A DNA stretch of 30,344 nt from positions 1-30,344 of the forward strand of contig DATJEQ010000307.1 in NCBI GenBank assembly GCA_035496495.1, in the 5' to 3' direction. The stretch's first letter is position 1, and each line of letters opens with the position of its first letter. The DNA is from Polyangiaceae bacterium (GTDB taxonomy: Bacteria; Myxococcota_A; Polyangia; Polyangiales; Polyangiaceae). Positions 7,331-19,678 of this stretch are shown piece by piece. Made by a program: the position numbers and the translations under genes. Under the pieces are notes generated by a model that saw only the letters and a program-made list of their open reading frames with translations, made no database searches and was not told where the DNA came from.

Positions 7331-9661
7331 GTGGCAACCATAGAGACGACCATGCTGTGGCAATCACTCCCTGAGTTTGGAACCGGCGTCCTGTACGCCA
7401 TCTTGGTGTGCGCCGCGTACACATTCGCCGTGTCCATCGCAGCGGGACGCAATCGACCGCGCTTGCTCGAATCGGCGCGCCTGGGGGCGTACGGCGTGTG
7501 CGGGCTGGTGTTACTCGGGGTCTTCTGTCTCGCTTACGCGTTCATCACTCACGATTTTCGCATTCGCTATGTCGCTCACTACAGCGAGCGCGCCATGTCG
7601 AACACCTTCTTGCTCACCGCCTTGTGGGGTGGACAAGACGGCTCGCTGTTGTGGTGGCTGTTCTTACTCAGCGTTTACATCACGGCCTGCGTGGCATGGC
7701 TCAAAGGGAAGTACCGGCATCTGCAGCCATACGTGATCGCGACGTTGATGGTGATCGTTAGCTTCTTCGCCATGTTGATGCTCTTCGCGGCAAATCCCTT
7801 TGAGACCAATCTCGCCGGATCACCGGTCGACGGGGAGGGGTTGAACCCGCTGCTGCAAGATTTCTACATGATCATCCATCCGCCCAGCCTGTACACCGGG
7901 TTCGTCGGCTGTTCGATTCCGTTCTCTTTTGCAATGGCCGCACTGATCACCGGCCGGCTCGATAACGAGTGGATCAACGCCACGCGCAAATGGATGATGT
8001 TCGCCTGGATGTTCCTGTCCATCGGCAACGCGCTGGGCATGCTGTGGGCGTACAAAGAGCTCGGCTGGGGTGGCTATTGGGCGTGGGATCCGGTGGAAAA
8101 TGCGGCCTGTTTGCCCTGGTTTACCGCCAGCGCCTACGTGCACTCGACCATGATCCAGGAGCGGCGCAACCTGATGAAGACGTGGAACTTAGTGCTGATC
8201 TGCATCACGTTCTTCCTGACCATTTTCGGCACATTCTTGACGCGCTCGGGTCTGATCAGCAGCGTCCACAGCTTTGCCAAGAGCGACATCGGCTCCTATT
8301 TTTTGTGGGCCATGGGCGCCATCGTGGCCACCTCTGCCGGTCTCATCGTGTGGCGCAGGCCGCTGCTCAAGGGCAGTGGGCGCATTGAATCCGTGCTCAG
8401 CCGTGAAGCGGCGTTCGTGGTCAACAATTGGGCCTTTCTGGGCGGCTGCACCTTCATTGGTGTCGCCACCATCTGGCCGCGCATCAGCGAGTGGCTGTGG
8501 CAGCAATCGGTCACCGTGGGGCCACCCTTCTTCAATCGCTGGATGACGCCCATTGGGCTGGTGATCTTGCTGCTCATGGGGGTCGCGCCGCTGTTCGGCT
8601 GGCGCAAGACGAGCGGCGTGTCACTCAAACGAGCCTTCGCTTTCCCCCTCGGCGCAGCCGCGCTCGTCGCGGTCGCTCACATGTTGTTCGGTGCCTCCGT
8701 CGGCTTTCCACCGCTGGTCTACGAAGAGGCTCATTACGAAGGCATTGTCGGTCAGCTGCTCAAACAAGTCGGGGCCACGGCACCGCTCATCACCACCACC
8801 CTGGTGGGGCTGAATTTCGCAGTAATTCTGCAGGAATTCGCACGAGGCATCGCGGCGCGCCGCAAGAATTCGCAAGAAGGCGTGTTCGAAGCCTTGCTCA
8901 ACTTGGTTAGCAAGAGTCGCCGCCGCTATGGCGGATACGTGGTCCATTTTGGCATCGGTCTCATCTTCCTCGGCTTCGCGGGCAAGGCGTGGGAGATCGA
9001 AAAAGAGGCGAATCTACTGCCGGGGCAAAGCGTGCAAGTGGGCGCTTACACCTTGACCTACAAGGCTCCTAGGATGGAAGTCGACGCAGAGAAGCGAATG
9101 ATCTTCACCGATCTCGCCGTCACCAGTGGCGGCAGAGAGCTGGGAAACGTCTCACCGGGCAAGTTCATCTACAAAAAACAACAAATGCCCACCACCGAGG
9201 TGAGCATCTTGAGCAGCTTGCGCGATGATCTTTATCTCGCGATCGGCACTGTCGATCCTTCCAGCAAGCTTGCGACCTTCCGCATTCACGTCAATCCACT
9301 GGTCAGTTGGATCTGGGTCGGCGTGCTGATTTTGATCGGCGGCGCGGGCATTTCGCTGTGGCCGGATGTCAGCTTCAAACAGCTGGGCGTCTGGCAATAT
9401 GTGCGCGCCTCGGCGGGCGTCACCTCGGGCGTGATGATGGCAATCTTGATCGCCACCAGCCCCGCCCACGCCCTGACCCTGCACGCCTTAGCGCCCCCCA
9501 TCGCGAGCGAAATGACCGCTGTTTCGGGCCAAGGATCGTCCGGGTCGTCGCCGCTGCCGCAGGCGCCTCAGGTGCCTTGGGCGCCGCTTGGGGCTCTCTT
9601 AGGCGGGTTCGTCTTGGCCGGCGTGTTCACCCCTTGGGTGCTGCGCAAACAACAAAAATAG
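7331..9661 (+). CDS. ccmF: Cytochrome c biogenesis heme lyase CcmF/NrfE with a ~98-aa C-terminal extension
   Basis: DFRIRYVA, LWGGQDGSLLWW, IIHPPSLY, the WWD motif WGGYWAWDPVENA, SAYVHS, FGTFLTRSG, SVHSF, YGGYVVHFG and NPLVSWIW. Alternative start ATG 7352. Confidence 0.95.
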   Translation: MATIETTMLWQSLPEFGTGVLYAILVCAAYTFAVSIAAGRNRPRLLESARLGAYGVCGLVLLGVFCLAYAFITHDFRIRYVAHYSERAMSNTFLLTALWGGQDGSLLWWLFLLSVYITACVAWLKGKYRHLQPYVIATLMVIVSFFAMLMLFAANPFETNLAGSPVDGEGLNPLLQDFYMIIHPPSLYTGFVGCSIPFSFAMAALITGRLDNEWINATRKWMMFAWMFLSIGNALGMLWAYKELGWGGYWAWDPVENAACLPWFTASAYVHSTMIQERRNLMKTWNLVLICITFFLTIFGTFLTRSGLISSVHSFAKSDIGSYFLWAMGAIVATSAGLIVWRRPLLKGSGRIESVLSREAAFVVNNWAFLGGCTFIGVATIWPRISEWLWQQSVTVGPPFFNRWMTPIGLVILLLMGVAPLFGWRKTSGVSLKRAFAFPLGAAALVAVAHMLFGASVGFPPLVYEEAHYEGIVGQLLKQVGATAPLITTTLVGLNFAVILQEFARGIAARRKNSQEGVFEALLNLVSKSRRRYGGYVVHFGIGLIFLGFAGKAWEIEKEANLLPGQSVQVGAYTLTYKAPRMEVDAEKRMIFTDLAVTSGGRELGNVSPGKFIYKKQQMPTTEVSILSSLRDDLYLAIGTVDPSSKLATFRIHVNPLVSWIWVGVLILIGGAGISLWPDVSFKQLGVWQYVRASAGVTSGVMMAILIATSPAHALTLHALAPPIASEMTAVSGQGSSGSSPLPQAPQVPWAPLGALLGGFVLAGVFTPWVLRKQQK

Positions 9662-9676
9662 GCTACGGAAAGCGGC

Positions 9677-10330
9677 GTGAGCAATTCGGTGGGCCACCAT
9701 TTGAGCTCGCTGCTGCCCAATCACCTGCAGAAGATGGGGGCGCTGCGAAAAATCGCGCTGTTCCTATTGGGGATCGCTGCGCTTGCTTGCGGGCTGTTAT
9801 TCGGGCTGGCAACTGCGCTGCTGTTGCTCGCCGGGGCCGCACTGCTCAATTGCATTCTACTCCTGTGGTCCAGCTTGCAAGGCCTTGCGGGCGAATCTCC
9901 AATGACCCTGGAAGAAGCCCTGAGCCTGGGTGCCCCCTCCGCCGAAGAAGAACAGAAGCAAGCCGTGCTGCGCGCGCTGAAAGATCTGGAATACGAGCGC
10001 AGCGTCGGAAAGATCAGCGATCAGGATTATCACGAGCTGTCGCAACGCTACCGTGCCGAGGCCAAAGCACTGTTGCTCCTCGTTGATCGCGATCTCAGCC
10101 CCGCGGTGAAAAAAGCCGAAGAACTGCTGGCAAAGCGCTTAGGCCACGCCCCAAGGAGCATCGAGGAACCCGCCCCAACGCAGACGGAGCCAGCGCAGAC
10201 GGAGCCAGCGCAAGCTGAGCCCGCAAAAGCCTTCGACGGCACATGCCCCCAATGCAGCACGCGCAACGACGCAGACGCCCGATTTTGCAAGAGCTGTGGC
10301 ACCCTCTTGACCCCCAAGGAAGGCGTATGA
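9677..10330 (+). CDS. Membrane protein with a CcmI-N/SHOCT-like helical hairpin and a C-terminal zinc ribbon
   Basis: Two N-terminal hydrophobic helices, LRALKDLEYERSVGKISDQDYHEL, and CPQC-x10-CKSC. It starts 15 nt after the ccmF stop. Confidence 0.8.
   Translation: MSNSVGHHLSSLLPNHLQKMGALRKIALFLLGIAALACGLLFGLATALLLLAGAALLNCILLLWSSLQGLAGESPMTLEEALSLGAPSAEEEQKQAVLRALKDLEYERSVGKISDQDYHELSQRYRAEAKALLLLVDRDLSPAVKKAEELLAKRLGHAPRSIEEPAPTQTEPAQTEPAQAEPAKAFDGTCPQCSTRNDADARFCKSCGTLLTPKEGV
10181..10225 (+). repeat. In-frame 15-bp tandem repeat (2 exact copies plus 1 degenerate) encoding QTEPA-QTEPA-QAEPA
   Basis: CAGACGGAGCCAGCG at 10181-10195 and 10196-10210, then CAAGCTGAGCCCGCA at 10211-10225. It forms the linker before the zinc ribbon. 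Confidence 0.85.
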
Positions 10331-11586
10331 AAACGCGATTCCTTATTGGGCTAGTCGCTCCCTTAGCGCTGGTCTTTTCGAGTTCAATTTGTAATGCACA
10401 GGCTCCTGCAGCGAGTGGCTCCGCTCCGGCGTCTGCTCACGCATCAGACGGAATGCAGGCTCCCAGCGGGCCGAAGTCACAAGACACTGCCGAGCTGCCA
10501 GTGGGCACCATTGAAGCACTGCTGCTCGATCCCAATGGGAATCCGGTTGCAGGGCACGCCATTAAGCTGACTGCTTTTCGCCAATCGATCGCCGAAGGCG
10601 ATTCACACACTGAGCGCACGCAAGTCAGCGATTCTCAGGGAAAAGCGACCTTTTCTGGCCTAGCAACCACCACCGACTTCAGCTACCGCGTCACCGTCTC
10701 TTCCGGGCCTGCGCAATTTGGCGCAGGAACTTTTCCCATCCGCCGCGACATGGGTCACCGCGAGGTGATCACGCTGTATCCGGTCAGCCGCGATCAAAAA
10801 GACGGTCCCGTTGTCGGTCGCGGCGTGATCGCCATTCATCCGGCTGAAGATGATTTTGTGATCGATGTGCTCTACCAGATCATCAACATCGGCAAAGTCG
10901 CGTGGGTGCCGGACGATCTAGTAATGAAACTCCCCACGGGGTGGAAGGCGTTCACCGCCCAAGAATCCCCCACCGACACCCATTTCGAAGAAGCAGGCGA
11001 TGTGGGGGCCAAGTTGATGGGCACCTTCGGGCCTGGTGCCAATGAAGTCGGCTTTCGTTTCAGTTTGACCAATCCGCACGAAGCCGCATTTGGACTCACC
11101 ATTCCGATCTTCCCGCGCACCATTGAAATGCGCGTGATCGTCGACTCGGGAACGGAGATGACACTCAAAGTTCCCGGCTTCAGCGACGCGACACCCGATC
11201 GCATGCGCTCAGGGCAACGCGTTTTGGTGGCTGAGCACAATTACCTTGAGCGGCGCGAAGCAAGCCCAGAGGCGATCAGCATCGACATTGGCGGCATGCG
11301 CACCAAAGGCAACGGCCATTACATCGCGCTGGGGATTGCACTGGCCATTGCCGCATACGGTCTGTGGAACGGCTGGCAGCAGCCTCGCAGCAAGAAGACC
11401 AAAGGCAACCTACCCGCAGCCGATCGAGGCGCCGCGCAAGGGCTACTGCTCGATGAACTCGTCGCACTCGAGAAAGCCCGAGAGGACAAATTGATTGGCA
11501 CCAAGGCCTACAGCCAAACCCGCCAAGTGCTGCTCACGAGCTTGGCGCGTCTAGAGTCCGCCGGAACAACTGCGCCCGCGGCCTAG
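10327..11586 (+). CDS. Exported beta-sandwich (carboxypeptidase-regulatory-like) protein with a C-terminal TM helix and CcmI-N/SHOCT-like tail
   Basis: ATG 10327 overlaps the upstream TGA (ATGA). It has a signal peptide MKTRFLIG...ICNA, DPNGNPVAGHAIKL...SDSQGKATFSGL (transthyretin-like fold pattern), the TM YIALGIALAIAAYGLW and the tail LLDELVALEKAREDKLIGTKAY. Confidence 0.75.
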   Translation: MKTRFLIGLVAPLALVFSSSICNAQAPAASGSAPASAHASDGMQAPSGPKSQDTAELPVGTIEALLLDPNGNPVAGHAIKLTAFRQSIAEGDSHTERTQVSDSQGKATFSGLATTTDFSYRVTVSSGPAQFGAGTFPIRRDMGHREVITLYPVSRDQKDGPVVGRGVIAIHPAEDDFVIDVLYQIINIGKVAWVPDDLVMKLPTGWKAFTAQESPTDTHFEEAGDVGAKLMGTFGPGANEVGFRFSLTNPHEAAFGLTIPIFPRTIEMRVIVDSGTEMTLKVPGFSDATPDRMRSGQRVLVAEHNYLERREASPEAISIDIGGMRTKGNGHYIALGIALAIAAYGLWNGWQQPRSKKTKGNLPAADRGAAQGLLLDELVALEKAREDKLIGTKAYSQTRQVLLTSLARLESAGTTAPAA

Positions 11587-11812
11587 TCGTCGCCCTGAGG
11601 CATGCCCCTGCTGAAATAATCCGGCACAACCTCTGTGCTCACCCTGTGGGCAACCCTCCGCATAGCCTGGGCTTCGTTCCTGTACAGACTGGGGGCCAAT
11701 TCGAAAACCTCTAGCCGTCCACGATTAGGTCACAGCTAAGCCCCCTGACCGATCCCGAAGCAATCCCCAACGTTGAAGACAAAAAACCCTTTTAACTCAG
11801 CTACTTGTAGTG

Positions 11813-11886
11813 TTTTCCACAAGGTCCACAGGGCCTACTGATACCACTACTAATTTTATTAATAAGTTAGATCTTAGAAGCGATCT
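11813..11886 (+). other. Putative chromosomal replication origin (oriC) unwinding module
   Basis: TTTTCCACA (11813-11821, matches TTWTNCACA) abuts AGGTCCACA (11822-11830), then GGGC, then CTA-CTG-ATA-CCA-CTA-CTA (11835-11852). A run of 15 consecutive A/T follows (11851-11865), then GATCT at 11870 and 11882. It lies directly upstream of dnaN-recF-gyrB. Confidence 0.75.
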
Positions 11887-11962
11887 GGCTTGAGCTTGAG
11901 CGGGCCAATGGGGACAGTTCGGAACCCTAGCGCCGCTCACGCGGTCCGGGTACACGAGGCCC

Positions 11963-13093
11963 ATGCAGATCGTTGTCAGCAAAAAAGACCTGCAACGGAT
12001 CCTGTCGCGATGTCAGGGCGTTGCCGACCGCAAAAGCACCATGCCCGTGTTGGGCAATGTGCTGTTGGAAGTAGAGGGCCCCGATCGTTTGCGTTTGGCA
12101 GCCACGGATTTGTACGTCGCGATCACGGGGAGCATTCCCGCTGAAGTTGAAAAGGGCGGGGCAATTGCGTTAGGCGCACGCGAACTCCTTGAGCGGATCC
12201 GTCATATGCCTGACGGAAAGATCTCCATCTCAACCAACGGCGCGGCCACCACCATTCGCGCTGTGGGTCATCCGCGGCGCTATACGTTGCAGGCGCTGCC
12301 CGGCGAAGAATTTCCCGCGCTGCCCGCAGCTGCAGCAAATGCCGAACGTCTCACGTTGCCCGCCAATGCATTGGCGCGTCTAATTGCGGCAACTCACTTT
12401 GCCATTTCCACCGATGAGACACGGCTGCATCTGAGCAGCGCCTTGTTCGAGTGGGACGGTGATCGCGTGCGCATGGTCAGCACGGATGGACATCGCTTGA
12501 GCAAGATGGAAGTGAAACTCAAGAGCACCCAAGCTTCCGCTTCGATGTTGATACCACTGAAGGGCATCAGTGAACTCAAGCGCCTGTGCGATGAGGCGAT
12601 TTCGGATACGGCAGACTTGGAGATTGTCATCACCCAGAGCGGACCGAACGCCTTCTTCGATCTGAAATCATTTCAATTCAGCGTGAAGCTGGTCGATGCG
12701 CAATTCCCGCCGTATCAACAGGTGATCCCTGCCAGCAGCGAGCGCCGCGTCGTGGCGCCGCGCTTAGCGGTGATGGAAGCGCTGAGCGCGGTGCAAGTGG
12801 CCGCTAGCGACCGCACCGGTGGGGTCAAGTTGTCACTGAGCAAGAACATGCTCCGCTTCAGCAGCGAGAGCCCGGATGGTGGGGATTGCTTGGACGAACT
12901 GGGCGCGGAATATTCCGGCGGTGAAATTGCCGTGGGCTTCAACGCCAAGTATTTGTTGGATGTGCTGGGCGCTGTGGGCGCTGAGAACGTTGCCATTGAG
13001 TTGAGCGGGGAGCTCGACCCCGCCGTGATCTCCCCCGCCACGCAGCCGCCAGATGGCAGCTACACGGCGGTGATCATGCCCATGCGGATTTGA
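11963..13093 (+). CDS. dnaN: DNA polymerase III beta sliding clamp
   Basis: KSTMPVLGNVLL, LAATDL, STDETR, MVSTDGHRL, FPPYQQVIP, VGFNAKYLLDVL and the terminal VIMPMRI. Confidence 0.97.
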   Translation: MQIVVSKKDLQRILSRCQGVADRKSTMPVLGNVLLEVEGPDRLRLAATDLYVAITGSIPAEVEKGGAIALGARELLERIRHMPDGKISISTNGAATTIRAVGHPRRYTLQALPGEEFPALPAAAANAERLTLPANALARLIAATHFAISTDETRLHLSSALFEWDGDRVRMVSTDGHRLSKMEVKLKSTQASASMLIPLKGISELKRLCDEAISDTADLEIVITQSGPNAFFDLKSFQFSVKLVDAQFPPYQQVIPASSERRVVAPRLAVMEALSAVQVAASDRTGGVKLSLSKNMLRFSSESPDGGDCLDELGAEYSGGEIAVGFNAKYLLDVLGAVGAENVAIELSGELDPAVISPATQPPDGSYTAVIMPMRI

Positions 13094-13166: not shown

Positions 13167-14267
13167 ATGGCCGTCGAACTGGGTGTGGTGAGCCTGCAGG
13201 TGCGCGGCTTTCGCAACCTCACTGCGGTGGATCTGAAGCCCGGGCCGCGCTTCAACGTGATCAGCGGCGACAATGGTCAAGGCAAGACAAGCCTTTTGGA
13301 AGCGCTATACGTGCTGTGCACCTCGCGCAGCTTCAGAATTGAAAAGCTCACTGAGGTGATTCAGGCGGGCAACGCGGTTGCCGTTGTCAGCGGGCAGCTG
13401 AAGGAAGCGGGCGTCGTTCGACGGCAACGCGCGAGCGTGGCACGAGACGAGCGCCAGTTCGTCATTGACGACAAACCGCAAGCACGCCTTTCCGATTACG
13501 CAACGCGCACGCCGGTGGTGGTCTTTCAGCCGGGCGATCTGCAGCTCATTTCCGGTAGCGCGGCGGGGCGCCGCAAGCTGCTCGATCGGGTGTCGCTGTT
13601 CCTCAATCCGCTGAGCATGGATCACCGTCAACGCTTTGCCAGCGCGCAACGCGAACGCCAACGCTTGCTCGATACGCGTGGCTCGGGTGCGCGCGAACTT
13701 GACGCATACGAACGAGTCATGGCCAAACATGGCACAGAGCTTGAGCGCATGCGCCTTTTGGCTGCGGAGAAATTGCAGCACGCCGCCACCAGTGCGTTCG
13801 AACGACTGGGTGATCCGCGGGTGAAGGTGGCGTTGCGCTTTGCTCCGGGTGGCCCGTACGAAGAAGAACAATTGCGTTTGCAACTGTACCAAGGGCGCTC
13901 CGACGATCAGCGGCGCAAGTCGACGCGTATTGGACCGCACAAAGACGATTTGGAAATCGAACTGGATCACCGCTTGGCGCGCCGGCACGCCTCCCAGGGG
14001 CAACAGCGCATGCTCGCCCTTGCGCTCAAGCTGGCGGAACTCGAATGCCTGTGCCACGCACGCGGGGCCTTTCCGTTGCTGCTGCTTGATGACGTCTCAA
14101 GCGAGCTCGATCACAGCCGCACCAACGCCGTGTACGACTTTCTTAAGCAGAGCCAGAGTCAGGTCTTCCTCACCACGACCCGTCCGGAGCTGTTTTCCTT
14201 CGCGCCGAGCAGCAGCACTGAGCGCTGTGATTTCAGGTTGGAACAGGGAGCTTTGCGCGATGGCTGA
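13167..14267 (+). CDS. recF: DNA replication/repair protein RecF
   Basis: GFRNL, Walker A GDNGQGKTS, SRSFR, IGPHKDDL, signature ASQGQQR and Walker B LLLLDDVSSELD. It sits between dnaN and gyrB. Confidence 0.96.
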   Translation: MAVELGVVSLQVRGFRNLTAVDLKPGPRFNVISGDNGQGKTSLLEALYVLCTSRSFRIEKLTEVIQAGNAVAVVSGQLKEAGVVRRQRASVARDERQFVIDDKPQARLSDYATRTPVVVFQPGDLQLISGSAAGRRKLLDRVSLFLNPLSMDHRQRFASAQRERQRLLDTRGSGARELDAYERVMAKHGTELERMRLLAAEKLQHAATSAFERLGDPRVKVALRFAPGGPYEEEQLRLQLYQGRSDDQRRKSTRIGPHKDDLEIELDHRLARRHASQGQQRMLALALKLAELECLCHARGAFPLLLLDDVSSELDHSRTNAVYDFLKQSQSQVFLTTTRPELFSFAPSSSTERCDFRLEQGALRDG

Positions 14268-14323
14268 ACAGGGACGGATCCGCGTCGGGAATCCCCGTAA
14301 ATGGGCCCCAAAAACCCCTTTAA

Positions 14324-16894
<2,571 letters not shown>

Positions 16895-17035
16895 CCGAGC
16901 CGGATCGCAAAAATTGCGCGGAAATGCGCAGATCCGAAGCAGCCCTTCATCGAGGGGGCCTGGACAAATCTGGCGTGCGACACAGCTTGAGCATTGGAGC
17001 CAAGCGACGCTTGGAGACGGGAAGGATTTACTTTG

Positions 17036-19678
17036 ATGCGCCCAGAACGCATGACCACCAAGAGCCAGGAAGCAATTCGTGACGCCCTCAGCCTCGCGCA
17101 GCGACGCGGGCATCCGGAGTTGGTGCCGGAGCATCTGCTGTTGGCGGTGATAGAACAGGACGGGGGAATTGGCGGTCCGTTGCTCGAGCGTGCTGGCGCC
17201 AAAGTCGGCACCTTGGTCTTGGATCTGCAGGAACGGCTCAATGGTTTGCCTCAAGTATCGGGTGGTGCAGCGCCGAATTTGGGCCGCCGTGCCAACACGT
17301 TGTTTGAGGCGGCTGAGAATGAAGCGAAGAAGCTGAAAGACGATTTTGTCTCTGTCGAGCACTTCTTGCTCGCGGCCAGCAAAGATAAAGACATCAAGGC
17401 CGTCTTTGATCGCCACAAGTTGACTCACGACGCACTCTTATCGGCGCTCACCCAGATCCGCGGATCGCAACGCGTGACCGATCAAGATCCGGAACAGAAG
17501 TTTCAGGCGCTCGAAAAGTACACTCGGGATCTCACCGCACTGGCGCGGCGCAGCAAGATTGACCCCGTGATCGGTCGCGATGAGGAAATTCGTCGCGTGA
17601 TGCAGGTGCTGACGCGTCGCACTAAGAACAATCCGGTGTTGATCGGCGAACCTGGCGTAGGAAAGACGGCCATTGCTGAAGGCATTGCTCAGCGCATTGC
17701 CAATGGCGATGTGCCGGAATCGCTGAAAGACAAGCGACTGCTCGCGCTCGACTTAGCAGCGTTGGTTGCCGGTGCGAAATTCCGTGGTGAGTTCGAAGAG
17801 CGGCTGAAGGCGGTGCTCAAGGAAGTCGAAGGTGCGGCGGGCACCATCATTCTGTTCATCGATGAACTGCACACACTGGTGGGTGCCGGCTCCGCCGAAG
17901 GATCGATGGACGCCGCGAACATGCTCAAGCCAGCGCTGGCGCGCGGCGAATTGAAGGCCATTGGCGCGACCACGCTCGATGAGTACCGCAAGCGTATTGA
18001 GAAGGATGCCGCGCTTGAACGCCGTTTCCAACCGGTGTTCGTGGATCAACCGAGCGTGGAAGCCACGATAGCGATCTTGCGCGGCCTTAAGCCTAAGTAC
18101 GAAACACATCACGGAATTCGCATTCAAGATCCGGCGCTGATCGCTGCGGCTACACTCAGCCATCGCTACATCACCGACCGCTTTCTACCCGACAAGGCCA
18201 TCGATTTGGTGGATGAAGCCGCCAGCAAGCTCAAGATGGAAATCGACAGCCTGCCGTTCGAAATCGACCAATTCGAACGCCGTTTGATCCAGCTGAAGGT
18301 CGAAGAGCAGGCGCTCAAGCGCGAGCGCGACAAAGGGTCACAGTCTCGCCTTGTGGAACTGCAACGCGAGGTGGCGGAACTGACCACAGAGCGCGACGCC
18401 GCCCGTGCGCAGTGGATGCGCGAAAAAGAAATCATCTCGAAAATCCAAACGCGGCAGCAAGAGCTGGAGGAGCTGAAGGGCCAGGAAGATCAAGCGCGCC
18501 GCAGTGCGGATCTCGGCAAGGCCGCAGAGATCCTTTACGGCAAGATCCCGCAAACAGAGAAAGACATCATCAAGTTGCGCGAAGAGTTGACGCAGGTGCA
18601 GAAGAAGAGCGCTTACTTGAAGGAGGAAGTCACGGAAGAAGACATCGCTGCGGTCGTGTCCAAGTGGACGGGTGTACCCGTGAGCAAGATGCTCGAAGGC
18701 GAGATGCACAAGCTTCTGACCATGGAAGAGAAGCTCAAGCTGCGCGTCGTGGGCCAAGATGAGGCGTTGCGCGCGGTGGCTAATGCGGTACGCCGCTCGC
18801 GCGCCGGGCTCGGGGAAGAGCGCCGCCCCATCGGCTCGTTCTTGTTCCTGGGCCCCACAGGCGTCGGCAAGACGGAGACCGCGCGGGCCCTGGCGGAGTT
18901 TTTGTTCGATGACGAGCGCGCGATGATCCGCATCGACATGAGCGAATACATGGAGCGACACACCGTGTCGCGTTTGGTGGGTGCACCGCCAGGCTACGTC
19001 GGTTACGAGGAAGGTGGGCAGCTCACGGAGCCGGTGCGCCGGCGTCCGTACAGCGTGATCTTGTTCGACGAGGTCGAAAAGGCGCACCCTGACGTCTTCA
19101 ATACCCTGTTGCAGATCTTGGACGACGGTCGACTCACCGACGGTCAAGGTCGCACCGTCGACTTCACAAACACGGTGATCATCCTCACCAGCAACATCGC
19201 CTCAGCGGAATTGAGCGAAGTGGAAGAACGCAGGGACTTGGACGCTTCTCAAAAAGGGGCGCTGATGCGCGAAGTGTCAGCCACCGCACTGCGCCAAGTG
19301 TTCCGCCCCGAGTTCATCAATCGACTGGACGAGATTGCCCTCTATCGCAGGCTGGCGCGCGAACAGATCCGCAGCATTGTCGATATCCAATTGGCGGCTC
19401 TGGAGAAGCGGCTTTCGCGGCGCGACCTCAAGCTGTCCGTTTCGACGGCCGCGAAAGATCGCTTGGCGAATCTGGGCTGGGATCCGCAATACGGCGCCCG
19501 GCCGCTCAAGCGGGCGATTCAAAAGAACCTGGAGGACAAACTCGCTGAGCGGGTGCTTGCCGGGGCTTTCGTCGCCGGTACCACGGTGCAGGTCGATGTG
19601 GAAGGCGACGCGCTGACGTTGGCTCAGCTGCAAGAAGGCGACGCACCAAAGCGTGGCACGAACGCCGCGCTAAACTAG
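17036..19678 (+). CDS. clpB: ATP-dependent disaggregase ClpB
   Basis: Two AAA+ modules (GEPGVGKT and GPTGVGKT), a coiled-coil middle domain, [13 protein letters not shown] and [11 protein letters not shown] 17036 follows the RBS GGAAGGA. Confidence 0.96.

Follow-up and report, generated by a model that had tools for sequence, protein, structure and literature searches.

A Bacillus-type basal unwinding module in front of dnaN very probably marks the chromosomal origin of a Polyangiaceae bacterium whose dnaA lies elsewhere

Where the chromosome starts to replicate when the gene in front of dnaN is not dnaA is the question raised by a 376-nt intergenic gap (positions 11587-11962, plus strand) of a Polyangiaceae genome. 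The window analysed here, 30,344 nucleotides long, is the whole of contig C307 of the host assembly (G000: 4.05 Mb, 519 contigs, 87.6% complete). Gene calls and Pfam matches place on the left of the gap the ccmF operon, with ccmF (7331-9661), a zinc-ribbon protein gene (9677-10330) and, as the last gene before the gap, a gene for a 447-aa protein whose Ig-like match is weak (10243-11586); and on its right dnaN (11963-13093, plus strand; beta sliding clamp, three DNA_pol3_beta domains, E 6e-24 to 3e-27), recF (13167-14267), gyrB (14426-16894) and clpB (16994-19678). This is the neighbourhood that the initial annotation had described, a ccm accessory gene upstream and dnaN-recF-gyrB downstream, and its statement that dnaA is not beside the module also holds: no dnaA is present in the 11.9 kb upstream or in the 17 kb downstream of dnaN. 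The ccm operon does run toward the gap without an obvious terminator, the plus-strand scan of the gap finding no terminator-like site after the upstream gene. The promoter scan found no sigma-70-like promoter in the gap, and an Rfam search of 11400-12100 (E up to 1) gave no match, hence no sign of a known RNA element. Layout, uniqueness within the assembly, conservation and the skew switch of relatives all support the proposal that the gap is the chromosomal origin; in our judgement the gap is very probably oriC, with 11813-11869 as its Bacillus-type basal unwinding module.

Sequence inspection recovered, base for base, every element that had been listed for the gap. The putative module begins with two abutting co-oriented DnaA boxes on the plus strand: box 1, TTTTCCACA (11813-11821), with one mismatch to TTATCCACA, and box 2, AGGTCCACA (11822-11830), with three mismatches. 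They are followed by the GC spacer GGGC (11831-11834, plus strand), which lies between box 2 and the first trio, and by six predicted DnaA-trios on the minus strand (11835-11852; plus strand CTA CTG ATA CCA CTA CTA), which read 3'-GAT GAC TAT GGT GAT GAT-5' on the bottom strand, with a central A in five of the six and a central G in the other. The A/T cluster (11851-11869), made of 15 straight A/T (11851-11865) followed by GTTA, is the putative first-melting region, and it is adjoined by two GATCT words (11870-11874 and 11882-11886) whose starts are 12 nt apart. Further upstream lies an inverted DnaA-box-like site on the minus strand (11645-11653; TGTGGGCAA on the plus strand, TTGCCCACA on the minus), with two mismatches to TGTGGATAA. 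Boxes close to the consensus are as few as had been claimed, only one differing from the E. coli consensus at no more than one position. Our inspection adds a third co-oriented box, CAATCCCCA (11761-11769, plus strand; core TCCCCA at 11764-11769), 52 nt upstream of box 1; a second, A/T-richer patch (11772-11800) between box 3 and box 1; and a possible weak inverted box (11909-11917, minus strand; TGGGGACAG on the plus strand), with the minus-strand core TCCCCA and three consensus mismatches, located between the A/T cluster and dnaN.

The basal unwinding system (BUS) was reportedly defined in the incC region of the Bacillus subtilis oriC by Richardson (2016 and 2019). It has since been treated in B. 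subtilis by Pelliciari (2021, PMC8287927; 2023, PMC10721633), and the rules applied here ask for a DnaA box with up to two mismatches at 0-16 bp from the first trio (PMC8287927), together with a tandem co-oriented second box with up to four mismatches, at least three consecutive trios of the form 3'-NAN-5', and a distal A/T region. At the level of sequence, the predicted module conforms to every one of these rules. Box 1 has a single mismatch and the first trio, 3'-GAT-5', starts 13 bp past it, the commonest spacing among the published BUS predictions (PMC8287927); box 2 stays within the limit with three mismatches, the upstream box being the better match, as is usual in BUS; the spacer GGGC compares with a family consensus of G-(G/C)-C-C; the central A in five of six trios and the 15-nt A/T run complete the pattern. 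As to location, dnaN-recF-gyrB lie alongside, and in three relatives the skew switches 2.7-11 kb from the module.

Since the published trio rule is loose (NAN three times beside a box with up to two mismatches; PMC8287927), a pattern of this kind could arise by chance in an intergenic gap richer in A/T. This possibility was weighed with a 66-column position matrix derived from 35 relatives, G000 being left out, with which both strands of the 519 contigs were scanned. The window site scored 48.6 bits over 66 nt and the runner-up among 8.04 million positions 16.1 bits, a margin of 32 bits; for the 36-nt core (boxes, spacer and trios) the values were 32.1 bits versus 20.2 for the next best. The matrix thus finds no second module anywhere in the 87.6%-complete assembly. 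Only eight A/T runs of at least 15 nt exist in the 4.05 Mb, one of which adjoins the trios, and the 376-nt gap contains four TCCACA or TCCCCA box cores versus ~0.3 expected. The site being the unique top match of a matrix built without its own genome, and its place, strand and register being conserved across more than 100 genomes, the chance reading is refuted by matrix uniqueness and by conservation among the named loci, and we give it practically no weight.

Conservation was followed in two sets of sequences: dnaN was found in 40 relatives of the same order, for 35 of which up to 6 kb of upstream sequence was taken, and 80 further loci came from a public genome-contig collection, most of them labelled Polyangiaceae, Sorangium sp. 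or Myxococcales. The module is present in 35/35 of the order relatives, on the dnaN strand and 89-354 nt before the start codon. When both strands of each ~8-kb named locus were scanned, the best matrix match was upstream of dnaN and on its strand in 78 of the 80 (74 of these 78 with more than 25 bits); the remaining two have less than 170 nt of upstream sequence, so that the module is found in every locus with more. Over the 101 distinct sites, the column consensus of box 1 is T-T-a-T-C-C-C-C-A (TTATCCCCA), of which TTTTCCACA is a minority variant; that of box 2 is n-n-n-T-C-C-A-C-A, its core TCCACA being conserved at 86-99% per column; and the G-(G/C)-C-C spacer consensus is drawn from the same sites. 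Outside the gap's central module, relatives carry TGTGGA(C/T)AA at the inverted site (11645-11653 in the window), in the same orientation and at ~-315 to -330 from dnaN; and many Polyangiaceae relatives show a TCCCCA/TCCACA core at the same offset as the third box, followed by an A/T-richer patch.

Conservation of the trios upstream of dnaN, which the initial annotation had named as a check, was borne out in the 35 order relatives and in the 101 distinct sites. The consensus runs CTA, C(T/G)A, (C/A)(G/T)A, C(G/T)A, C(T/G)N in a strict three-base register; the three positions of the first trio, CTA, are conserved at 88, 97 and 100%, and beyond the trios every relative has an A/T-rich block. At trios 2-5 the central base on the strand predicted to be bound is A or C in 75-85% of the sites and T in 1-6%, so that, read from sequence, the family trio pattern is 3'-G(A/C)T-5', with hardly any T at the centre. 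In vitro, a central cytosine separates the strands as well as adenine, and G, T and U fail (PMC10721633); the natural trio pattern agrees with this cytosine-for-adenine result.

The dnaA gene of G000 is located on another contig (C143), beside a gene of unknown function, a Ser/Thr kinase gene, dnaK and grpE; the contig ends put dnaN and dnaA no less than 13.5 kb apart. Elsewhere in the order, 11 families have dnaA at most 6 kb upstream of dnaN, often directly adjacent, and the module is in or near the dnaA-dnaN spacer. In the Polyangiaceae, dnaA was near dnaN in none of 24 genomes and in none of the 80 named loci (0/104); 67-76 of these 80 loci have the ccmF, zinc-ribbon and 447-aa genes in front of the module, and in three long-read genomes dnaA and dnaN are on one contig, 449, 629 and 743 kb apart. 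Because dnaA is adjacent in other families and never in the Polyangiaceae, comparison of gene order makes the dnaA-module-dnaN adjacency look ancestral in the order, and the break of the dnaA-dnaN pair is, on the same gene-order comparison, a family-level trait of the Polyangiaceae. The earlier proposal that the module stayed with dnaN-recF-gyrB while dnaA moved thus fits the family, which keeps it beside the ccmF operon with dnaA elsewhere. The suggestion that the displacement is shared with other myxobacteria is right throughout the Polyangiaceae and wrong for myxobacteria in general, 11 other families having kept the adjacency. In one of the long-read Polyangiaceae genomes (G041), dnaA matches occur in two adjacent frames (C4:4931185-4932076), which is probably a sequencing frameshift and not a broken gene. 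On C143 of G000, the region upstream of dnaA (L002, 1326-1600) is A/T-richer; this contig contains no DnaA box with fewer than two consensus mismatches, and with none of that quality upstream of dnaA the usual box-based dnaA autoregulation is not evident.

Strand asymmetry, also named as a check, switches at dnaN in three relatives (G002, G023 and G012) and not around dnaA where this could be followed. In a 259-kb contig of the same genus (G002), the skew minimum is at 111,456 and the module near 114,150, 2.7 kb apart, and the 10-kb bins range from -0.04 to -0.11 left of dnaN and from +0.03 to +0.10 from the dnaN bin rightward. A 342-kb contig of the same family (G023) has its cumulative minimum at 161,153 and the module near 165,840, 4.7 kb apart; in a 229-kb contig of the same genus (G012) the switch is less marked and the minimum is 11 kb away from the module. 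No sign change was found around dnaA across 140 kb (G002), 60 kb (G012) and 100 kb (G005). The cumulative GC-skew minimum of the window's own 30-kb stretch is at 11850; the skew is weak (-0.037 on the left, +0.062 over the next 8.5 kb) and flips again at 20.5 kb, where the genes switch strand, so that this minimum is supportive and short of decisive. Skew samples of 20 kb along the long contigs of G041 (5.7 Mb), G043 (2.0 Mb) and G038 (1.0 Mb) gave values of ~±0.02, with signs loosely compatible with a switch at dnaN and too weak and noisy to locate it; ordering the G000 contigs along the relatives' long contigs placed only 3-5 of them.

Two other readings of the locus have to be weighed against an origin opened through its boxes and trios. 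The module could be a DnaA-controlled regulatory region of dnaN-recF-gyrB, or a relic origin, with replication starting elsewhere, near dnaA or at another box cluster. DnaA boxes do control promoters in many bacteria, dnaA is encoded elsewhere with an A/T-richer region upstream of it on C143, and the assembly holds two other DnaA-box clusters (C346:3424-3443 and C193:6716-6790). A site of this kind, however, needs neither registered trios nor an A/T cluster, both of which are kept in more than 100 genomes; the skew of relatives flips at dnaN and not at dnaA; C143 is free of boxes within one mismatch of the consensus; the relatives-derived matrix gives no second module in the assembly; and the C346 and C193 clusters have neither a GC spacer with trios nor an A/T block. 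We therefore hold this reading to be improbable.

Even less probable, in our view, is that the gap is the origin and opens by a route other than from box to trio, through melting at 11772-11800, read-through transcription from ccmF or an accessory protein. The A/T-richer patch between box 3 and box 1 is conserved in position, the plus strand carries no terminator between the ccmF operon and the gap, and a non-canonical trio is present among the six, all of which would suit such a route. Against it, the first trio (CTA, 88-100% per position) is the strongest conservation outside the boxes, the register continues for five trios and then gives way to the A/T block, as expected if the trios are read, and the 13-bp spacing is the modal BUS value (PMC8287927).

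Under the preferred reading, an oriC with a Bacillus-type module, and by analogy with B. subtilis, ATP-bound DnaA would dock on the co-oriented boxes (11813-11830), probably helped by the third co-oriented box 52 nt upstream and by the inverted box ~165 nt upstream. From there the DnaA oligomer would extend past the 4-bp GC spacer to reach the trios of the bottom strand, its binding would stretch the trio strand, and the adjacent 15-19-nt A/T cluster would melt; the helicase would then load and the forks would go both ways, the rightward fork co-directional with dnaN-recF-gyrB. From homology with B. subtilis we infer that DnaA binds, in what sequence the events follow and where the duplex melts. 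Since dnaA is encoded elsewhere, DnaA must act in trans.

The segment predicted to melt first is also rich in GATC. At least one GATC is found in the 62-nt post-trio segment of 72 of the 101 distinct sites (113 copies in total), compared with 18-32 of 100 control segments of equal length, and CTAG, whose base composition is identical, has only 12 occurrences in those post-trio segments; GATC is concentrated 3-5 fold in these ~60 nt. Genome-wide, GATC is 2.2 times commoner than base composition predicts. G000 encodes a Dam-family methyltransferase (C228:12760-13638; L211:1438-2319) whose whole length matches DpnM (8e-67) and E. coli Dam (4e-46), and 38 of the 40 relatives have a DpnM/Dam-like gene of the GATC-type adenine methyltransferases. 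Of the same 40, 34 carry a MutH-family gene (~230-250 aa), on contigs other than that of the methyltransferase gene; none was found in the 87.6%-complete G000 assembly. The pairing of Dam with MutH is generally regarded as a feature of certain Gammaproteobacteria. Of the features of an E. coli-type origin, the GATC cluster and a predicted GATC adenine methyltransferase are found here, and SeqA (PF03925) was not found in G000 and four other Polyangiaceae genomes, in a search that detected the E. coli control. That origin firing in the Polyangiaceae and their order is coupled to Dam methylation is a speculative and rather unlikely possibility, suggested by the distribution of these words and genes; if true, hemimethylation-sensing or duplex-destabilising origin control would have arisen outside the Gammaproteobacteria, via an unknown reader protein.

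Compared with known systems, the locus shares its plan with the B. subtilis oriC, which has two tandem co-oriented boxes, a ~4-bp GC-rich spacer, 3'-GAT-5'-type trios on one strand and an A/T region, with the melting end toward dnaN. In B. subtilis, dnaA is directly upstream, with the incA/B box cluster before dnaA, whereas here the ccmF operon is upstream; the Polyangiaceae further differ in the C at position 7 of the box 1 consensus (TTATCCCCA), in the 3'-G(A/C)T-5' trios and in the clustering of GATC words at the predicted melting site. The oriC of E. coli is located between gidA and mioC, not beside dnaN. It resembles the Polyangiaceae locus in that dnaA is not adjacent, in the concentration of GATC in the unwinding element and in having Dam and MutH, homologues of which are encoded in Polyangiaceae genomes; it differs in box number and layout, and in SeqA, not found in the five Polyangiaceae genomes. 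Origins linked to dnaN without dnaA are the rule in cyanobacteria. Those of Microcystis and Synechococcus share with the window an oriC beside dnaN without dnaA, and the box word TTTTCCACA (PMC2650636). Cyanobacteria are an unrelated lineage, and in the Polyangiaceae this word is the minority form of box 1. For Haliangium ochraceum DSM 14365, which belongs to a different order, the predicted BUS is listed at genome position ~2.2 kb, which we take to be next to dnaA. As given in its row of Supplementary Table S2 (PMC8287927), this BUS is alike in its tandem boxes ending in TCCACA, its GGCC spacer and its trios starting with CTA.

A published case from the same family is Sorangium cellulosum So ce56, whose origin was first reported as undiscoverable and which was originally stated to show no skew inversion (PMC2650636), a statement that the weak sampled skew of G041, G043 and G038 brings to mind. 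A dnaN-linked oriC ~2 Mb from dnaA was predicted for it by Gao and Zhang in 2008 (PMC2650636) and repeated in a 2021 review (PMC8538405); as here, the origin is placed directly upstream of dnaN, with dnaA far outside the neighbourhood. A dnaN-linked origin with a displaced dnaA is therefore not new. The published Sorangium box TTATCCCCC, a GC-rich variant compared by the published word alone, resembles TTATCCCCA, the window having TTTTCCACA; the upstream gene is a kinase gene in Sorangium and the ccm accessory gene here. The Sorangium prediction rested on Z-curve disparity and three boxes, and the tandem-box, trio and A/T module was not described there; nor is there a Sorangium or Chondromyces row among the rows listed in the supplementary BUS predictions (PMC8287927). 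What is added here is modest: evidence that the arrangement is family-wide, the Polyangiaceae module itself, the ccmF-operon neighbour, the 3'-G(A/C)T-5' rule and the GATC enrichment.

For the Polyangiaceae, a large and mostly uncultured family in which a usable GC skew is often missing, these results place the predicted origin, and they provide an origin-finding rule for fragmented assemblies: ccmF operon, TCCCCA/TCCACA pair, GsCC, C(T/G)A repeats, A/T block, dnaN. They also indicate that, when the dnaA-dnaN pair breaks, it is the unwinding module, not dnaA, that keeps its linkage to dnaN. The accepted picture of bacterial initiation is unchanged by them.

DnaA-box words occur elsewhere in the assembly, which has seven perfect and 337 one-mismatch boxes. 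Two of the seven perfect boxes are a tandem pair of TGTGGATAA, 2 nt apart (C346:3424-3443; L209), in the 13-nt gap before a gene for an 817-aa HEAT-repeat protein, and likely serve either DnaA-dependent promoter control or DnaA titration. Between a TPR protein gene and a gene of unknown function lie three 33-nt repeats in tandem, each with TGTGGAAAA (C193:6716-6790; L210). Neither cluster is retained as an alternative origin: trios and an A/T block are absent from both, and the module matrix scores them low. Within the window, a bipartite motif, ATCCCC(A/G), 13 nt, AAAAACCC(T/C)TTTAA, is found at 11762-11795 and again at 14290-14323, upstream of gyrB; in the origin copy, the first half of the motif corresponds to the conserved third DnaA-type box, and the copy upstream of gyrB may for this reason be a DnaA-related control site.
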